Shown in pieces: positions 702-45,136 of a stretch of DNA of 49,576 nt (position 1 is the stretch's first letter; every line of letters starts with the position of its first letter). Below the pieces are notes generated by a model that made no database searches, was not told the origin of the DNA, and was given only the letters and a program-made list of their open reading frames with translations. The DNA comes from Escherichia phage HK639: sequence record NC_016158.1, one strand, 5' to 3'. The translations under genes were made by a program, and so were the position numbers.

Positions 702-2269
702 ATTACAAAGCTGTATGGAAGCCACTGCCTGGATCTCAGTCCCTGGCGCTGAGCTGCCCGTGTAACGAAATCCTGTTCGAGGGCACTCGCGGACCGGGCA
801 AGACAGCTGCGCAGTTAGCCAGGTTCAGGCGTAATGTCGGCGTAGGTTATGGCTCGTTCTGGCGCGGCGTCATTTTCGACACCGAGTATAAAAACCTTGC
901 CGACATCATCACTCAGTCGAAGCGCATGTTTCGCCTGTTCAACGACGGTGCGCGCTATCTGTCATCTGCGAGCGAATTGCGATGGGTGTGGCCAACGGGC
1001 GAGGAGCTTCTCTTCCGCTTCGGCAAAGAGGCAGACGACTACTGGGATTTCCACGGTCAGGAATTCCCGTTTATCGGCTTTAACGAGCTGACGAAACAGC
1101 AGTCTCCAGAGTTCTATGAAATGATGTTCTCCTGCCGCCGATCATCGTTCAGGCCGGAAAACTACCCGCTGGAGAATGGCAAGTTATTGAGGCCAATCCC
1201 GCTGGAGACGTTCAGCACGACCAACCCGTTCGGCATCGGGCATACCTGGGTGAAGAAGCGCTTCATTGAGCCAGCGCCGCGCGGAACCGTGCAGCGCGAC
1301 CGGCAAATGGTGTTCAACCCTCAGACAGAACGAGAAGAGGAAATCACGCTGACCCGCGTGGCAATCCACGGCTCGTTCAAAGAGAACCCGTACCTCGATC
1401 CGCAGTACATCGCAACGCTGATGGCCATCAAAGACCCGAATCGCCGTAAGGCGTGGGTTGAGGGCTCGTGGGATGTTACCAGCGGCGGACGTTTCGACCA
1501 TCTGTGGAATGCCTCGCATCATGTCATCAAGCCATTCCGCATACCGGATAGCTGGACGGTCGACCGCTCGCATGACTGGGGCGAATCGAAACCGTTTTCC
1601 AACCTCTGGTGGGCACGATCCGACGGAACCGCCGCAGAACTGCCTGATGGCCGCCAGTTCTGCCCGCCTGCTGGGACGCTGATTCTTATTGGCGAGTGGT
1701 ACGGCTGCCCACCGGACGAGCTGAACAAAGGCCTGAATATGTCATCAACAAACGTCGCTAAGGGCGTTGCCTGGGTAGATAAACGACTGGTGGGCGATGA
1801 ACTTGCTGAGCCTGACGAAATCAAGCTTAACGGGGTGACGCAGGGGCAACTGAACATCATGCCTGGAATCTGTAAGAAGGTTACACCGGGCCCGGCTGAC
1901 AGCGCCATTTACAATACAGGCGATGATGAACTCTCCATTGCGCAGAAGATGGAGTCCCAGGGCGTTAAATGGCTTGAGGCAAACAAAAAGCCGGGATCTC
2001 GCGTTAACGGCGCCGCTCTGTTTGCCGATATGCTCGAAGCTGTCAATGAAGGTAAGAAACTGGAATCCGGCATCCCGGAGAAACCTGCATTTTACGTATT
2101 CGACTACTGCCGTGGCTGGATCAGCCGTGTGCCGGTACTCGTGCGCGACAGTAAAAACCCCGACGATGTAGATACCCAACAGGAAGATCACGACTGGGAT
2201 GCTACCCGATATGCCGTTCTGCATTCACCGCCGAAGAGAGTCGGCAAAGTCACCAATCTGAGGCTCTAA
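698..2269 (+). CDS. phage terminase large subunit (ATPase/nuclease)
   Basis: 523 aa; Walker A-like GTRGPGKT near N-terminus; acidic nuclease-like C-terminal half; position after small terminase. Confidence 0.8.
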   Translation: MNYKAVWKPLPGSQSLALSCPCNEILFEGTRGPGKTAAQLARFRRNVGVGYGSFWRGVIFDTEYKNLADIITQSKRMFRLFNDGARYLSSASELRWVWPTGEELLFRFGKEADDYWDFHGQEFPFIGFNELTKQQSPEFYEMMFSCRRSSFRPENYPLENGKLLRPIPLETFSTTNPFGIGHTWVKKRFIEPAPRGTVQRDRQMVFNPQTEREEEITLTRVAIHGSFKENPYLDPQYIATLMAIKDPNRRKAWVEGSWDVTSGGRFDHLWNASHHVIKPFRIPDSWTVDRSHDWGESKPFSNLWWARSDGTAAELPDGRQFCPPAGTLILIGEWYGCPPDELNKGLNMSSTNVAKGVAWVDKRLVGDELAEPDEIKLNGVTQGQLNIMPGICKKVTPGPADSAIYNTGDDELSIAQKMESQGVKWLEANKKPGSRVNGAALFADMLEAVNEGKKLESGIPEKPAFYVFDYCRGWISRVPVLVRDSKNPDDVDTQQEDHDWDATRYAVLHSPPKRVGKVTNLRL

Positions 2270-33649: not shown

Positions 33650-33693
33650 AATTGCCCTCTGTCGTTACCCGCAGATGCGGGAGAAATGCTTTG

Positions 33694-33763
33694 TGGTGGA
33701 GTGCTCCGGATTCGAACCGAAGTTTTCATGGGTGATCAGTCCATGCAGGCCCAGCCACACCCC
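33694..33763 (-). other. tRNA-like element (T-arm, acceptor 3' strand, CCA) of non-canonical structure
   Basis: Minus strand reads GGGGTGT...TTCGG-TTCGAAT-CCGGA-GCACTCC-A-CCA; 5' GGGGTGT can pair with 3' GCACTCC via two G-U pairs; only 35 nt between, so no canonical D/anticodon arms. Confidence 0.3.
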
Positions 33764-33887
33764 ACTACAAAACATTCCAGTTATTGCCGGGGTATTTATC
33801 CGCGCCCGGCGCGCGCTTTCCCGCTATTCCCCAACAGCAAGAAATCGCTTACTCTTTAATCTCCCCAACAGTAGAAAGGATATATTC

Positions 33888-34109
33888 ATGCAAACCATGC
33901 GGACCGTGTGCCCTGACTGCGGAAGTGAGATGTTCAACCAGCCCGATGATTTTGACTTTGAGACAAATTTCACCGGCGTCAGTTGTGCTGACTGTGGTCG
34001 AGAAATCACTAAGGACGATGTTGTCAATCAGGCCACGGACACGGTCAAAAAACAGATCGACGACATGCTCAGGAATTCCCTGAAAGGAACTGGCTGGAAG
34101 TTCAAGTAA
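33888..34109 (+). CDS. zinc-ribbon protein (CxxC...CxxC), orientation uncertain
   Basis: 73 aa MQTMRTVCPDCGSEM...VSCADCGREI with RBS AAAGGA; antisense ORF 33849..34196 (113 aa, RBS GAGGGG) is an alternative reading. Confidence 0.35.
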   Translation: MQTMRTVCPDCGSEMFNQPDDFDFETNFTGVSCADCGREITKDDVVNQATDTVKKQIDDMLRNSLKGTGWKFK

Positions 34110-34236
34110 CCTTAAAAGCTCCCCGAACTGAGTAAGAACCTCACTGGCGTCTACGTTAAGCAGTAGTGGCGCCGTTTTTTTATCTGCCATACACACCCCT
34201 CTGTTTGTTTACCGTCAGCCCCTCGCAAAGAGCTGC

Positions 34237-34253: not shown

Positions 34254-34486
34254 ATAATTGCCGCTCTTCCTGAGCCCGCCTATGGTCCGACGCATGGTTT
34301 ACTGTCGCGCCGTTCGACTGACCGAATCTCCACTTCGCCGCTGGCTAACTTCCCTCAGCTATCGATGTTTCGTTTCGATGGATTAAAGATAACCTTAGTT
34401 ATGAGTGATGGCAATAACCTAATTTATAATATCAATCACATAAGTTATAAATTAATGATAACTAAATGAATTTATTTTTGTAAATC

Positions 34487-34723
34487 ATGAGTGCTATGCT
34501 CACAAAAACAGCAGGAGGGATGTGCATGGTTCTGGATGAAGAGCGTATAAGCATGAAAATTCAGGCGATGGGGCGGGCGGTGATGGAATTGTCACTGGCT
34601 GATTTACCCATGACCCAGCAAAACATCATCGACAAGCTGGAGCAGTACCGGAAGGAAACAGGAAACGTGATAGGGAAGGGCGTGAACAGGGATGCGGCTG
34701 AGATAGTGTGGAAAGGCTTATAG
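34487..34723 (+). CDS. hypothetical small protein (true start may be internal Met)
   Basis: 78 aa; preceded by very AT-rich promoter-like region; weak resemblance of C-terminal part to Hha/YmoA-like proteins, not verifiable. Confidence 0.4.
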   Translation: MSAMLTKTAGGMCMVLDEERISMKIQAMGRAVMELSLADLPMTQQNIIDKLEQYRKETGNVIGKGVNRDAAEIVWKGL

Positions 34724-34926: not shown

Positions 34927-35325
34927 TTAGTTCATTGGAAGAGAAATTCCAGAAACTCCCGCTTGTGCAAGTAGGGTATCAGCGAAGAATTTAAAATAAG
35001 TTTTCATGAACGACGAAAAATACCATGTATTTTCAATAAGAAACGTTTCATCTACAGTTTTATCTTTTGGATATGTATAGACCATCTTCATATCTATTTT
35101 TAAAGAAAACACTTTTGTAGATTTATCAGGACCATAGCTATCAGCAAAGGGACTGGCATGAACGATAATCACTGATAGATCAGGGTTGGAAAGTAGAGTC
35201 CCGCCAGCCTCAAAATTTAAATCGCCATACTCGAAAGTAACCTCTCCGCCATAAGAGTCTCCTAAGCGCGAAATTGCGCTATTAGTTACTGATGCTTCAA
35301 TGAGTTGCAATTCGCTTAATAGCAT
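34927..35325 (-). CDS. hypothetical protein, third gene of Gp49/HigB-like operon
   Basis: 132 aa; start overlaps stop of upstream HTH gene; AT-rich; no recognisable domain. Confidence 0.5.
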   Translation of the reverse strand: MLLSELQLIEASVTNSAISRLGDSYGGEVTFEYGDLNFEAGGTLLSNPDLSVIIVHASPFADSYGPDKSTKVFSLKIDMKMVYTYPKDKTVDETFLIENTWYFSSFMKTYFKFFADTLLAQAGVSGISLPMN

Positions 35326-35750
35326 TTCGTTTGATATTCCGCATTGCTTGTTTTAATAGTAATTTTAATGGTCTGGCCCGGGTTATCGCTAACATCGGCC
35401 GCTTTCCATGAGAGTCGTTTCATATCTGGAATGATGGCATGCGAGACGTCCACTCCTTCTCTTAATATGACAACTTTCGCCACGGCCCCTAAAGCATAGG
35501 CCATATCAGAAAGGGTTTTGAGAGTCATATTCCGAGTGCCGTCGAGCAGCTGGCTTACATGACCTTTAGATTTACCCAATTTTTTAGCTAGCTCGGACTG
35601 AGAAATGTTCGCGTCCTGCATTGCTAAAAGAAGGTCTTCAGTTGTGTTAAAGATCAAGCGCTCACACGCCATCTCTCGCTCACTAACCTCCGGGAAATCA
35701 AAATTATCATCACTAAACAGATTGTTAGCAATCATCATGGCCTCGCTCAA
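35316..35750 (-). CDS. HTH XRE-family protein (HigA-like antitoxin candidate)
   Basis: HTH segment ISQSELAKKLGKSKGHVSQLLDGTRNMTLKTLSDMAYALG; overlaps upstream toxin-like gene. Confidence 0.65.
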   Translation of the reverse strand: MSEAMMIANNLFSDDNFDFPEVSEREMACERLIFNTTEDLLLAMQDANISQSELAKKLGKSKGHVSQLLDGTRNMTLKTLSDMAYALGAVAKVVILREGVDVSHAIIPDMKRLSWKAADVSDNPGQTIKITIKTSNAEYQTKCY

Positions 35751-36018
35751 TTCTTTCCCAATTATTTTTCACCTTTTGGACATCTGAGTCATCAAGTCGG
35801 TCAAAATCTTTGTATATGTAATGACTAATAAAAATCGTCATATCATGTCTGTCAGACTCCCAGTAGTAACCTCTAATCGGAATCTTCTTTATAGCCCAGA
35901 AATTCTTAGCTGGCTTTCCGTTAAACGATGGCAAAATTCCTTCTTTGCGAACACTCAAGTCAGGCGTCCTTTTGCCAGAAGCCAAGCGCTCAAGTTGCAG
36001 GATGAGTGATATCTGCAT
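35725..36018 (-). CDS. Gp49/HigB-like toxin candidate (RelE/ParE superfamily)
   Basis: Track ORF 35725..36129 begins at non-ATG codon; ATG at 36018 with AGAGG RBS gives 97 aa; C-terminal IPIRGYYWESDRHDMTIFISHYIYKDF fits recalled Gp49/HigB pattern. Confidence 0.5.
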   Translation of the reverse strand: MQISLILQLERLASGKRTPDLSVRKEGILPSFNGKPAKNFWAIKKIPIRGYYWESDRHDMTIFISHYIYKDFDRLDDSDVQKVKNNWERIERGHDDC

Positions 36019-36145
36019 ACTTTTCTGCCTCTTTGCAGGAGTAACGCTTTTCAGCGATTCGCTCAGGGATTTCAATGCTCCCTTACAATGCACTATCCGA
36101 TAACACTCACCCTGTATGGAGCCTTTCAATTTATCACCATCTAAG

Positions 36146-36291: not shown

Positions 36292-36981
36292 TCAAAGCTT
36301 GTTGTAAGCAATGGACTCATGGATCAGCGCCTTACCCATGATGTACAGCTGGTCCTGATTTTCTTCTGTCACATACCAGTCTTTGTACGCCGGGTTATCG
36401 GAAAGTACAGCCAACTGCAGACCCTGCATTTGCAGGCGCTTAACGTGGAAGTGCTGCCCGAAGACAAACGCATACACCCCGTCAACTTTGAAGTTCCTCA
36501 CTGAAACGTCAAAGAAGAGGCGATCGCCAGACTGTATTGTCGGGCACATGCTGTCGCCGTCTACGGTCATCACCTTCACATCATTTTGAGTGCGGTTCCC
36601 GAAAAGAGATCTGGCATGCTCAGTTGTGAACTCAATAGCATGCAGGACCTCAACAAATTCAGAAATCATAAAAGACCCCGGACCAGCGCTTACTTTCAGG
36701 TCTAAAACATCAACCCGAAAGACATCAATTGTTTCCGAGACCGGTTGGGCCGCCGATGGCACATTACCATCAATCCGCATTTCCCCCACTCCAGAACTAA
36801 GCCATTCCGGCCTTACACCCAGAGCATGAGCTAGCTCGACCATCTTACGGCTGCCGCTCGTTTTACCTGATGTCATCTTTTGAATTGCAGGCTGGGATAT
36901 ACCGACTTTATCAGCCAACTGTCCTTGAGATATGTCAGCGGCCGACATAGCCGCGTTCAGTCGTTCTGCAAATGTTTTCAT
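36292..36981 (-). CDS. cI: CI-type prophage repressor (HTH plus S24 peptidase domain)
   Basis: N-terminal HTH QGQLADKVGISQPAIQKMTSGK; C-terminal S24 domain with GDSM motif (VDGDSMCPTI) and conserved Lys region; divergent from cro. Confidence 0.85.
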   Translation of the reverse strand: MKTFAERLNAAMSAADISQGQLADKVGISQPAIQKMTSGKTSGSRKMVELAHALGVRPEWLSSGVGEMRIDGNVPSAAQPVSETIDVFRVDVLDLKVSAGPGSFMISEFVEVLHAIEFTTEHARSLFGNRTQNDVKVMTVDGDSMCPTIQSGDRLFFDVSVRNFKVDGVYAFVFGQHFHVKRLQMQGLQLAVLSDNPAYKDWYVTEENQDQLYIMGKALIHESIAYNKL

Positions 36982-36992
36982 CTTATCAATAT

Positions 36993-37056
36993 ATAACCGA
37001 GGTTATGTAGAGTAAAATAACAAAGGTTATGGACAATGCCCATAACTTGGGTTATC
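36993..37056. promoter_or_regulatory. oR-like operator region with ATAACC/GGTTAT half-sites
   Basis: ATAACC-GA-GGTTAT (36993..37006), lone GGTTAT (37025..37030), ATAAC-TTGG-GTTAT (37043..37055) in the cI-cro intergenic region. Confidence 0.55.
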
Positions 37057-37091
37057 TTTTCATTAATCCAGTAATCGGATAGGTAAAATCC

Positions 37092-44362: not shown

Positions 44363-44437
44363 GGGTCAGAAGCACAGCGGTTGTGCGTTCGGCTGTTAAC
44401 CGAATGGTCGAAGGTTCGAATCCTTCCTGTCCCGCCA
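44363..44437 (+). tRNA. tRNA-Asn (anticodon GUU), phage-encoded, one U-U mismatch in acceptor stem
   Basis: Manual fold: acceptor GGGTCAG/CTGTCCC, D-stem GCAC/GTGC, anticodon stem TTCGG/CCGAA with loop CTGTTAA, T-arm GAAGG-TTCGAAT-CCTTC, discriminator G, CCA. Confidence 0.6.
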
Positions 44438-44776: not shown

Positions 44777-44806
44777 TTGACTGCAGGAATAAGTTCGGCG
44801 TAATTT
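44777..44806 (+). promoter_or_regulatory. candidate late promoter (pR'-like): TTGACT-18 bp-TAATTT
   Basis: -35 TTGACT and -10 TAATTT resemble recalled lambda pR' hexamers; about 170 nt upstream of a strong terminator. Confidence 0.35.
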
Positions 44807-44952
44807 ATTTCTGTGGTGAATCCTTTCTAAGCGAAAGGGCGTTCCAGCCAACTGCTATCTGCAGGTATGCGCGCGACTTTGCTGGCTGGAGTAGAGTCAC
44901 CGGGAGGCACCCGGCACCATGACAACAACAATACAGTTTCAAATTCCTTGAG

Positions 44953-44981
44953 AGCCTGCCGTAAAAAGCAGGCCTTTTTTT
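44953..44981 (+). terminator. rho-independent terminator (tR'-like candidate)
   Basis: GCCTGC-CGTAAAAA-GCAGGC plus TTTTTTT. Confidence 0.6.
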
Positions 44982-45136
44982 ATGAAATTGCGAACTGCTG
45001 CTACGCTTGAAAAGTGGGTTGAAGATAACTGCCTGATGGTTCTCCTGAACCATAGTGAATCAGCCTGATACTGTCTCACTCTGGTCAGTTAGCAAAACTC
45101 ACGACTACCTACCTTACTTACTAATAGTCACTCATT

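Follow-up and report, generated by a model that had tools for sequence, protein, structure and literature searches.

Comparative evidence for a zinc-ribbon gene nested antisense within a partner gene in the early region of Escherichia phage HK639

Conservation of both reading frames

We have analyzed the 49,576-nucleotide (nt) sequence of the lambdoid prophage Escherichia phage HK639 (NC_016158.1), referred to here as the window, with respect to a pair of open reading frames (ORFs) on opposite strands, one of which is nested entirely inside the other. The plus-strand ORF (33888..34109) runs from ATG 33888 to TAA 34109, encodes 73 amino acids (aa) followed by the stop codon, and contains two CxxCG knuckles, C8-P-D-C11-G and C33-A-D-C36-G; it is termed the zinc-ribbon gene. 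The minus-strand ORF, termed the partner, spans 33849-34196 including its stop codon and comprises 115 aa when read from GTG 34196 or 113 aa from ATG 34190 (33849..34190). As judged from comparison with related loci, both genes are very probably real, and the pair appears to be a well-supported case of antisense overlapping genes and not one gene accompanied by an artifact. The explanation that we consider best, and probable, would be a compact cassette of two genuine protein-coding genes that are written codon against codon on opposite strands. Both frames have been kept intact over very deep divergence.

According to the coordinates, the ORFs are in exact codon-antisense register, in which position 1 of a plus codon faces position 3 of a minus codon and position 2 is common to both. 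Some 220 bases are used on both strands, and approximately 74 partner codons are reverse complements of zinc-ribbon codons. The partner ATG at 34190 lies 81 nt past the zinc-ribbon stop, and the first 27 partner codons (34110..34190, minus strand; MADKKTAPLLLNVDASEVLTQFGELLR), which carry the motif hxhxhDxSEhxxQhxxL, are outside the zinc-ribbon gene; this segment is referred to as the private N-terminus. The zinc-ribbon gene is preceded by the Shine-Dalgarno (SD) sequence AAAGGA (33875..33880, plus strand), 7 nt 5' of its ATG, and the partner by GAGGGG (34196..34201, minus strand), 5 nt 5' of ATG 34190. A preliminary description of this DNA had reported the nested, mutually antisense pair with its ORF sizes, its CxxCG motifs and these two ribosome-binding sites, all of which are found in the sequence. 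It had also held that only one of the ORFs was likely real, a view not supported in light of the selected N-terminus of the partner, the openness of its frame, a bias at synonymous sites and the outcome of reciprocal sampling.

A set of 241 related loci was assembled from collections of phages, genomes and metagenomes; their zinc-ribbon sequences formed 21 clusters at 85% identity, which were collapsed to 9 deep groups. The partner frame was open across the whole zinc-ribbon gene in 20 of the 21 clusters, as compared with an expectation of 6.1 (P = 1.7e-11), and in eight of the nine deep groups (P = 8e-5). This expectation was derived from control-gene codon usage and from the amounts of Leu and Ser in each zinc-ribbon protein. 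Each deep group with an open partner frame had at least 24 further open codons past the zinc-ribbon stop. For real genes of these phages, the exact-antisense frame was found to be open in 25% of 75-codon windows. A single open antisense ORF is thus unremarkable, whereas its retention in 20 of 21 lineages is not a chance result.

The case for the partner is clear outside the overlap, where the private N-terminus is under purifying selection. The ratio of nonsynonymous to synonymous substitution rates (dN/dS) of this segment was 0.22, 0.58 and 0.35 in three sets, with every bootstrap below 1, and the common variants fell at position 3 of the minus codons. An ungapped comparison of 10 lineages revealed no stop codon in the partner frame, as opposed to 8-30 stops in the other five frames. 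The codon-usage log-odds (coding vs. shadow model), determined from the window alone, was +0.62. The start region is conserved as well: the distance from the zinc-ribbon stop to the partner ATG is constant in the relatives, at 72-84 nt, most of the 21 clusters have a GAGG/GGAG-type SD sequence 5' of this ATG, and the N-terminal motif, in the form hxhxhD(A/T)SEhxxQhxxL, is present in all lineages, the most divergent members included.

Sampling in the opposite direction led to the same pair. The partner matched phrog_29546, weakly for the window protein (E = 3e-4) and with E values down to 1e-60 for relatives. A search with a profile of partner proteins retrieved 79 proteins from a word-indexed database, and an exhaustive scan for the family returned 229 representatives of 50%-identity clusters, most of which were 85-115 aa long. 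We fetched the DNA of 10 remote members chosen via the partner protein alone, seven of them from among the weaker matches listed (E values from 1e-12 to 7e-7). All 10 loci contained an intact CxxC...CxxC ORF opposite the partner in exact-antisense register; given the Leu/Ser content of these partners, the joint chance of this outcome is 6e-12. Ascertainment was thus reciprocal: lineages identified via the zinc ribbon had an intact partner in 20 of 21 cases, and loci identified via the partner had an intact zinc ribbon in 10 of 10. The preliminary description had considered that neither frame might be conserved in related phages; both of them are.

The zinc-ribbon protein matched the NCBIfam family NF047912 (ECs_2282 family putative zinc-binding protein) with 83.3 bits (cutoff, 37; E = 7.9e-24; profile positions 4-60 of 60). 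Its dN/dS, calculated according to Nei and Gojobori, was 0.21, 0.22 and 0.11 at three divergence depths, with every bootstrap below 1, and the OLGenie-type dNN/dSN ratio was 0.12-0.18. Among 65 distinct close variants, the variable sites at plus codon positions 1, 2 and 3 numbered 9, 2 and 24, respectively. Residues C8, C11, C33 and C36 were invariant or nearly so in 20 proteins, were invariant across the 21 clusters and were present in the remote loci. Nearly all 21 clusters have an AAGGA/GGAG-type SD sequence 6-9 nt 5' of the ATG. The codon-usage log-odds of the zinc-ribbon gene, again from the window alone, was +0.17, which is below the 5th percentile of real genes.

Inside the overlap, the choice among synonymous zinc-ribbon codons bears a trace of the partner. 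Leu in the zinc ribbon is encoded by CTC, which is read as Glu in the partner, in 41 of 71 cases (58%, vs. 15% in the background). One zinc-ribbon Pro is CCC in 19 of 19 lineages (Gly in the partner) and another is CCT or CCG (Arg in the partner in 19 of 20). Gln codons for which changes are synonymous on both strands vary without restriction. We then considered zinc-ribbon residues that are identical but differently encoded and scored the corresponding change in the partner. The analysis revealed a bias toward conservative substitutions of +0.61 BLOSUM units (column-bootstrap confidence interval [CI], 0.31-0.93), as compared with -0.02 ± 0.26 in controls; the zinc-ribbon value was reached by 1.3% of the controls, which were 77 ordinary gene pairs from the same loci. 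In the overlap, the zinc ribbon thus dominates the constraint on amino acids, and the partner is selected modestly, that is, weakly but detectably.

The partner was acidic in all relatives, with an isoelectric point (pI) of 4.4-5.5. Its AlphaFold2 (AF2) model, obtained with an alignment of 50 sequences, has a predicted beta-alpha-alpha-beta-beta-alpha topology (predicted local distance difference test score [pLDDT], 77; predicted template modeling score [pTM], 0.57). It forms a single compact fold that spans the private and the overlapped parts, from the N-terminal strand (residues 10-14) to the helix at residues 84-109. A structure search with this model revealed no meaningful structural neighbor, and the partner had no Pfam match at E values up to 1 and no NCBIfam match. 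Gene callers predicted both ORFs in two loci, L238 and L239. In two lineages (L005/L161 and L013), antisense ORFs of 155 aa were observed that join the partner in frame with a small gene of another PHROG located upstream (phrog_21096 and phrog_9419); these are either true fusions or the result of a start called too far upstream.

Alternative readings of the overlap

A number of results weigh against two genes or against parts of the cassette reading. The case for both genes is comparative only. The naive minus-frame dN/dS in the overlap was 1.1-1.4; since plus wobble positions are minus first positions, this ratio is uninformative for dual coding here. The OLGenie-type dNN/dNS ratio of the partner was 0.55-0.79, and its CI excluded 1 in just one of three sets. 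A within-cluster polymorphism test was marginal (P = 0.06), with no partner stops, as compared with 2.3 expected (P = 0.085), and partner codon usage in the overlap was not coding-like (log-odds, -0.10). A first similarity test, which included all sense-identical codons, was not significant (+0.91 vs. +0.59 ± 0.94 in controls); identical codons in the less-diverged control pairs probably inflated the control values, and it was replaced by the test on differing synonymous codons given above. The AF2 model of the zinc ribbon, with short strands followed by a long predicted C-terminal helix (residues 42-67), is poor (pLDDT, 59) and was judged too poor for a structure search. A consensus scan showed neither a plus-strand sigma-70 promoter 5' of the zinc-ribbon gene nor an intrinsic terminator.

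One lineage and one remote locus depart from the common arrangement and weigh in the same direction. One lineage (L014 and L154-L156; e.g., L155 2989-3219) has retained a zinc ribbon without the partner: the gene is co-oriented with its neighbors, and the opposite frame has several stops and lacks the N-terminal motif of the partner. This lineage either lost the partner or predates it. In L246 (2501-2758) the cassette is flipped, and the zinc ribbon, not the partner, runs with the RecT/YqaJ operon; the rule that the partner runs with the operon is therefore not universal.

Among the checks that the preliminary description had proposed, codon-usage scoring gave positive log-odds for the zinc ribbon, although low ones for a real gene, and for the private N-terminus, and a negative value for the partner in the overlap. 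Comparison of synonymous and nonsynonymous changes across homologues demonstrated constraint on the zinc ribbon and the private N-terminus and a modest signal for the partner in the overlap.

The weak amino-acid constraint on the partner in the overlap agrees with the view that it is translated for a purpose in cis only, with ribosomes that stay on the operon mRNA across an inverted moron and prevent Rho-dependent polarity, or that hinder expression of the zinc-ribbon gene, and a 113-aa product without function of its own; what would count is the open frame, the start codon and perhaps a short peptide from the N-terminus. The strongest partner signals, namely, openness and the start region, are in line with this view, as is the presence of the cassette in densely packed operons, in which stretches without translation would do harm. 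We nevertheless regard translation for a cis purpose as unlikely. The private N-terminus has kept a specific motif and its exact length over deep divergence, synonymous variation in the zinc ribbon is filtered for conservative partner changes, with positions held as Gly, Arg or Lys, and AF2 places the private N-terminus and the overlapped part in one compact model. Furthermore, the sieB genes of phage lambda and the Rac prophage are located in the same slot with no long ORF opposite to them, and the partner of L246 points against the neighboring operon.

Existing annotation is split between the two strands. The Prokaryotic Genome Annotation Pipeline (PGAP) annotates the zinc-ribbon gene, under the ECs_2282 family name, in near-identical E. 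coli prophages, whereas GenBank records of the Klebsiella phages ST974-OXA48phi18.2, KP12 and 2b LV-2017 and of Edwardsiella phage Edno5 have the partner ORF annotated, and the latter also has hundreds of predicted-protein database entries. Both genes were annotated together in no record examined. The PGAP annotation would be correct if the minus ORF were a shadow ORF. Long spurious ORFs arise most readily in the exact-antisense frame, since stops in it need the rare sense codons TTA, CTA and TCA; the zinc ribbon of the window has just 2 Leu and 3 Ser, and the probability of an open frame is 0.38 for this sequence. Such a view is also in agreement with the 25% of open 75-codon windows, the naive minus dN/dS above 1 and the lack of Pfam and NCBIfam matches. 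It fails on the openness in 20 of 21 clusters, on the 27 conserved outside codons with their dN/dS below 1, conserved ATG and SD sequence, and on the conservative-substitution bias and the anomalies in codon choice, and we consider it improbable. That only the minus ORF is real, as in the GenBank phage records and as Prodigal-type callers would have it, is highly improbable: this ORF is longer, is annotated in phage records and numerous predicted-protein entries, and has an AF2 confidence exceeding that of the zinc ribbon, but substitutions gather at plus third positions with a plus dN/dS of 0.11-0.22, the opposite of what it predicts, none of the four Cys varies, all 10 partner-found loci have an intact zinc-ribbon ORF (P = 6e-12), and the zinc ribbon persists alone in one lineage and matches a curated family hidden Markov model (HMM). 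If both genes are real, the conflict is resolved in that one real gene is missing from every annotated record examined.

Genomic setting of the cassette

In agreement with the preliminary description, the partner ORF heads the leftward early operon. Operators of the ATAACCnnnGGTTAT type are found three times beside the S24-type repressor gene (S24/HTH repressor gene at 36292-36981; OR, including 36993-37007 and 37017-37031) and again at 34389-34403 (OL). They belong to operator family D3, which is accompanied by a 43-nt inverted repeat that pairs 34385-34427 with 37017-37059, and leftward promoter-like hexamers are present at 34414..34386 and 34484..34455. The resulting OL/pL region (34385..34484, minus strand) is taken to drive the partner gene, which, on the basis of the operators, the inverted repeat and the hexamers, is the first ORF after pL/OL.

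The preliminary description had placed the partner in the slot of an N-like antiterminator and had noted that it is not arginine-rich. The latter is correct, as the protein is acidic (pI 5.1) and has 4 Arg among 113 residues. We rejected an N-like identity, given this number of Arg, none of which is in the first 26 residues, the lack of a Pfam match and the co-occurrence with N. This is illustrated by the Erwinia prophage L239, in which a gene with PF25694 (N_peptide) is followed, after an 8-nt gap, by a member of the partner family with the zinc-ribbon ORF opposite to it. The partner family directly follows a true N in this prophage and is therefore a companion of N rather than its replacement; the early position after pL/OL stands, and the implied substitution for N does not.

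The zinc-ribbon/partner pair moves among phage operons as one mobile unit. It was observed after a cro/YdaS-type gene, with the partner start overlapping the stop of that gene, between Q and the lysis genes, in myovirus baseplate operons and in a siphovirus tail operon. In several operon types, the partner is tightly packed and co-oriented with its neighbors, in one case 9 nt after a spike gene.

Sequence comparison indicates that the slot in HK639 is in fact the sieB slot of lambda and Rac, in which sieB is likewise a rightward gene within the leftward early region. A segment of about 95 nt located 5' of the zinc-ribbon ATG contains interleaved complementary pairs, two direct repeats and the SD sequence, and this architecture is kept in 13 of the 21 clusters. 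The whole element is also found 5' of sieB in lambda (L242; about 497-583) and in the Rac prophage of strain K-12 (L157; about 2064-2171). In E. coli R1, a Rac-like prophage shares 90% identity with that of K-12 up to the element, after which the zinc-ribbon gene replaces sieB. Since no long ORF faces sieB in either lambda or Rac, the antisense gene belongs specifically to the zinc-ribbon cargo rather than to the slot. The idea that the slot requires a translated ORF is weakened by the same two loci.

The interleaved pairs (33786..33815, no strand assigned) are located about 70 nt 5' of the zinc-ribbon ATG and consist of A (GCCGGG, 33786-91), B (CGCG, 33801-04), A' (CCCGGC, 33805-10) and B' (CGCG, 33812-15). 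Compensatory changes were observed in both stems, and 3 of 400 shuffles reached at least 10 interleaved pairs. On the leftward strand, the stems have a canonical H-type geometry that is compatible with a pseudoknot; an Rfam search gave no match for this element. Direct repeat 1 (ATTCCCCAACAG; 33826..33837, plus strand), a possible -35 region of a zinc-ribbon promoter, is conserved as TTCCCCAACAG or TTTCCACAG in most lineages with a lambdoid context and occurs as ACCCCTACAG before sieB in lambda and Rac. Direct repeat 2 (CTCCCCAACAG; 33861..33871, plus strand) is located 17-27 nt 5' of the zinc-ribbon ATG and is preceded by a -10-like hexamer; the same second copy is found before sieB in lambda and Rac. 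The -35/-10 candidates inside the conserved element are weak and were seen by eye only. The element could function as a promoter or operator, as an RNA element, or in both capacities.

Two further observations concern this element. The PGAP versions of the zinc-ribbon gene with N-terminal extensions (109-157 aa; L007 3857-4330, P0001, P0002 and P0007) cross it; as the conserved start with its SD sequence gives 63-80 aa in all lineages, the PGAP starts are probably too far upstream. In K-12 Rac (L157), the annotated small RNA (sRNA) KilS (1906-2003, minus strand) lies between kilR and the sieB upstream element; in the E. coli R1 prophage with the zinc-ribbon cassette, this region shows 90% conservation.

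Other features were noted on both sides of the pair. The 191 nt between the partner and the next leftward ORF (33660-33850, minus strand) have an RNA fold of -81 kcal/mol (z = -4.3 vs. shuffles) and end in a short GC hairpin (33669-33682) directly before the SD sequence of the next gene. Between the partner stop and this ORF, ARAGORN called a 70-nt tRNA-Ile (GAT) with a CCA end (33694-33763, minus strand). The Rfam tRNA model RF00005 did not match this segment at the gathering threshold or at E values up to 1, and its exact 3' half was found in 6 closely related loci only. We rejected the tRNA-Ile identity, which was neither confirmed by Rfam nor conserved beyond close relatives; the element may be a degenerate tRNA or a tRNA-like remnant. 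On the other side, a 78-aa ORF with a strong AGGAGG-type SD sequence (34487-34723, plus strand) is divergent from pL and adjoins the OL operators; it had no family match. Three co-oriented ORFs of 134, 144 and 132 aa (34927-36129, minus strand) are located between the repressor gene and OL, where lambda has rexAB. The second of these ORFs encodes an HTH_3 protein with PADLOC matches to the candidates PDC-M64B/C (E = 2e-9), and the outer two had no matches; the trio may be a prophage-expressed defense or toxin-antitoxin-like moron. Farther away, the window contains a bona fide tRNA-Asn (GTT) at 44363-44437 (plus strand) and, 340 nt beyond it, a full-length match to the Rfam sRNA STnc100 (44780-44985, plus strand; 52.6 bits; gathering score, 47).

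Possible function and relation to known systems

The zinc-ribbon protein is hydrophilic (grand average of hydropathy, -0.71), and its pI varies from 4.5 to 9.7 among relatives. We considered and rejected acid-base complementarity of the two proteins, since the partner is always acidic whereas the pI of the zinc ribbon spans this range. In Pfam, the top 25 matches of this protein were all to generic zinc-ribbon families and scored below the respective cutoffs. Assignment to Lar/Ral, to the MqsA/YgiT finger or to the TFIIB ribbon was likewise rejected, as all scores were below the cutoffs (17.0 bits for the Lar family TIGR03655; cutoff, 39.6). A weak match was obtained with the PADLOC defense candidate PDC-M14A (24.6 bits; E = 6.3e-6; residues 6-72 vs. 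profile positions 20-90 of 152), for which there is no curated cutoff; the partner protein had no PADLOC match.

Data on phage P22 provide a possible model for such a locus. The sieB gene of P22 is reported to be prophage-expressed and under the control of a cis-antisense RNA (PMC10883804; PMC12197685), and antisense control combined with an escape product has been described for this phage (PMC12197685); the RNA is named sas and the escape protein Esc. By analogy, the zinc-ribbon gene would be a moron that is expressed from its own promoter in the lysogen, like sieB, with a possible role in exclusion or defense. Upon induction or infection, the surrounding operon would be transcribed through the zinc-ribbon gene in the opposite sense, and the partner protein would be made. 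Transcription of the operon would silence the zinc-ribbon gene via convergent transcription and RNA pairing, and the two expression states would be mutually exclusive. During lytic growth of the phage itself, the partner may counteract the function of the zinc ribbon or take its place, and the overlap would keep both genes inseparable in mosaic phage genomes. The full chain, namely, a lysogen moron, a lytic partner and their mutual exclusion, is tentative, and we would sooner doubt it than assume it.

A stronger version would be a functional pair, in which an exclusion or toxic zinc-ribbon effector of the prophage is matched by a lytic antidote or escape factor, and which recombination cannot split and whose members silence each other. 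The near-universal co-inheritance, the mobility of the cassette, and the sieB slot with its control element allow for this reading, which is speculative and, in our view, unlikely to hold in full. Direct binding of the sense and antisense products to each other is a possibility. If true, the functional pair would be a counterpart of the SieB/Esc/sas circuit at the protein-protein level and a novel design for addiction- or immunity-type modules; should the two products act on each other, this would be a new way to build an inseparable two-component module.

The existence of antisense overlapping genes in bacteria and phages is disputed, and most candidates are young, narrow in distribution and based on a single data type. 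The HK639 pair would rank among the best comparative cases, as it is retained in both directions of ascertainment across a family of 229 or more clusters at 50% identity. The pair would also provide a clean experimental system, because in this register a stop codon can be introduced into either frame without altering the protein encoded by the other. Early regulation is also read differently: the first pL gene appears to be neither N nor a substitute for N, and its place would be a sieB-type moron slot with a control element in common with lambda.

A literature search revealed no paper on the ECs_2282 family or on such an overlapping pair. The description of NF047912 is silent on an overlapping partner, and phrog_29546 has neither a function nor a Pfam model, with hmmscan output that is silent on an opposite-strand gene. 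Antisense overlaps reported for E. coli O157:H7 EDL933 (PMC9927249) and Pseudomonas aeruginosa (PMC8850804) resemble the HK639 pair in that one ORF is embedded antisense in another and in that the case is made from ORF integrity and purifying selection by overlapping-gene methods (PMC4316641; reviewed in PMC7457138). The embedded genes of those pairs are typically young, taxonomically narrow and supported mainly by ribosome profiling (Ribo-seq), whereas the HK639 pair belongs to a family of 229 clusters at 50% identity, is mobile between operons and has comparative evidence only; here, the shorter, embedded gene bears the stronger constraint.

Phage morons are independent transcription units inserted between phage genes (PMC3594210). 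The HK639 pair is similar in being a small self-contained cassette at classical moron positions, namely, behind N or cro, in the interval from Q to the lysis genes, and within operons for tail and baseplate proteins. Classical morons consist of one gene with a promoter and a terminator, whereas no terminator was found here and the corresponding space encodes the N-terminus of the partner. The Lar/Ral zinc ribbons and PDC-M14A are also small prophage CxxC...CxxC proteins with weak HMM similarity; they differ in that the Lar score is below the cutoff, and PDC-M14A itself is just a candidate. The sieB locus shares with the zinc-ribbon gene the slot, the rightward orientation in the leftward early region, convergent with N, and the upstream element with its interleaved stems, two direct repeats and SD sequence. 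The proteins differ: the top 25 Pfam matches include no SieB family, and the zinc ribbon is a hydrophilic, predicted zinc-binding protein of 73 aa, whereas lambda sieB has 184 aa. Finally, the antisense strand encodes a small RNA, sas, in P22, whereas in HK639 and its relatives it encodes a conserved protein.

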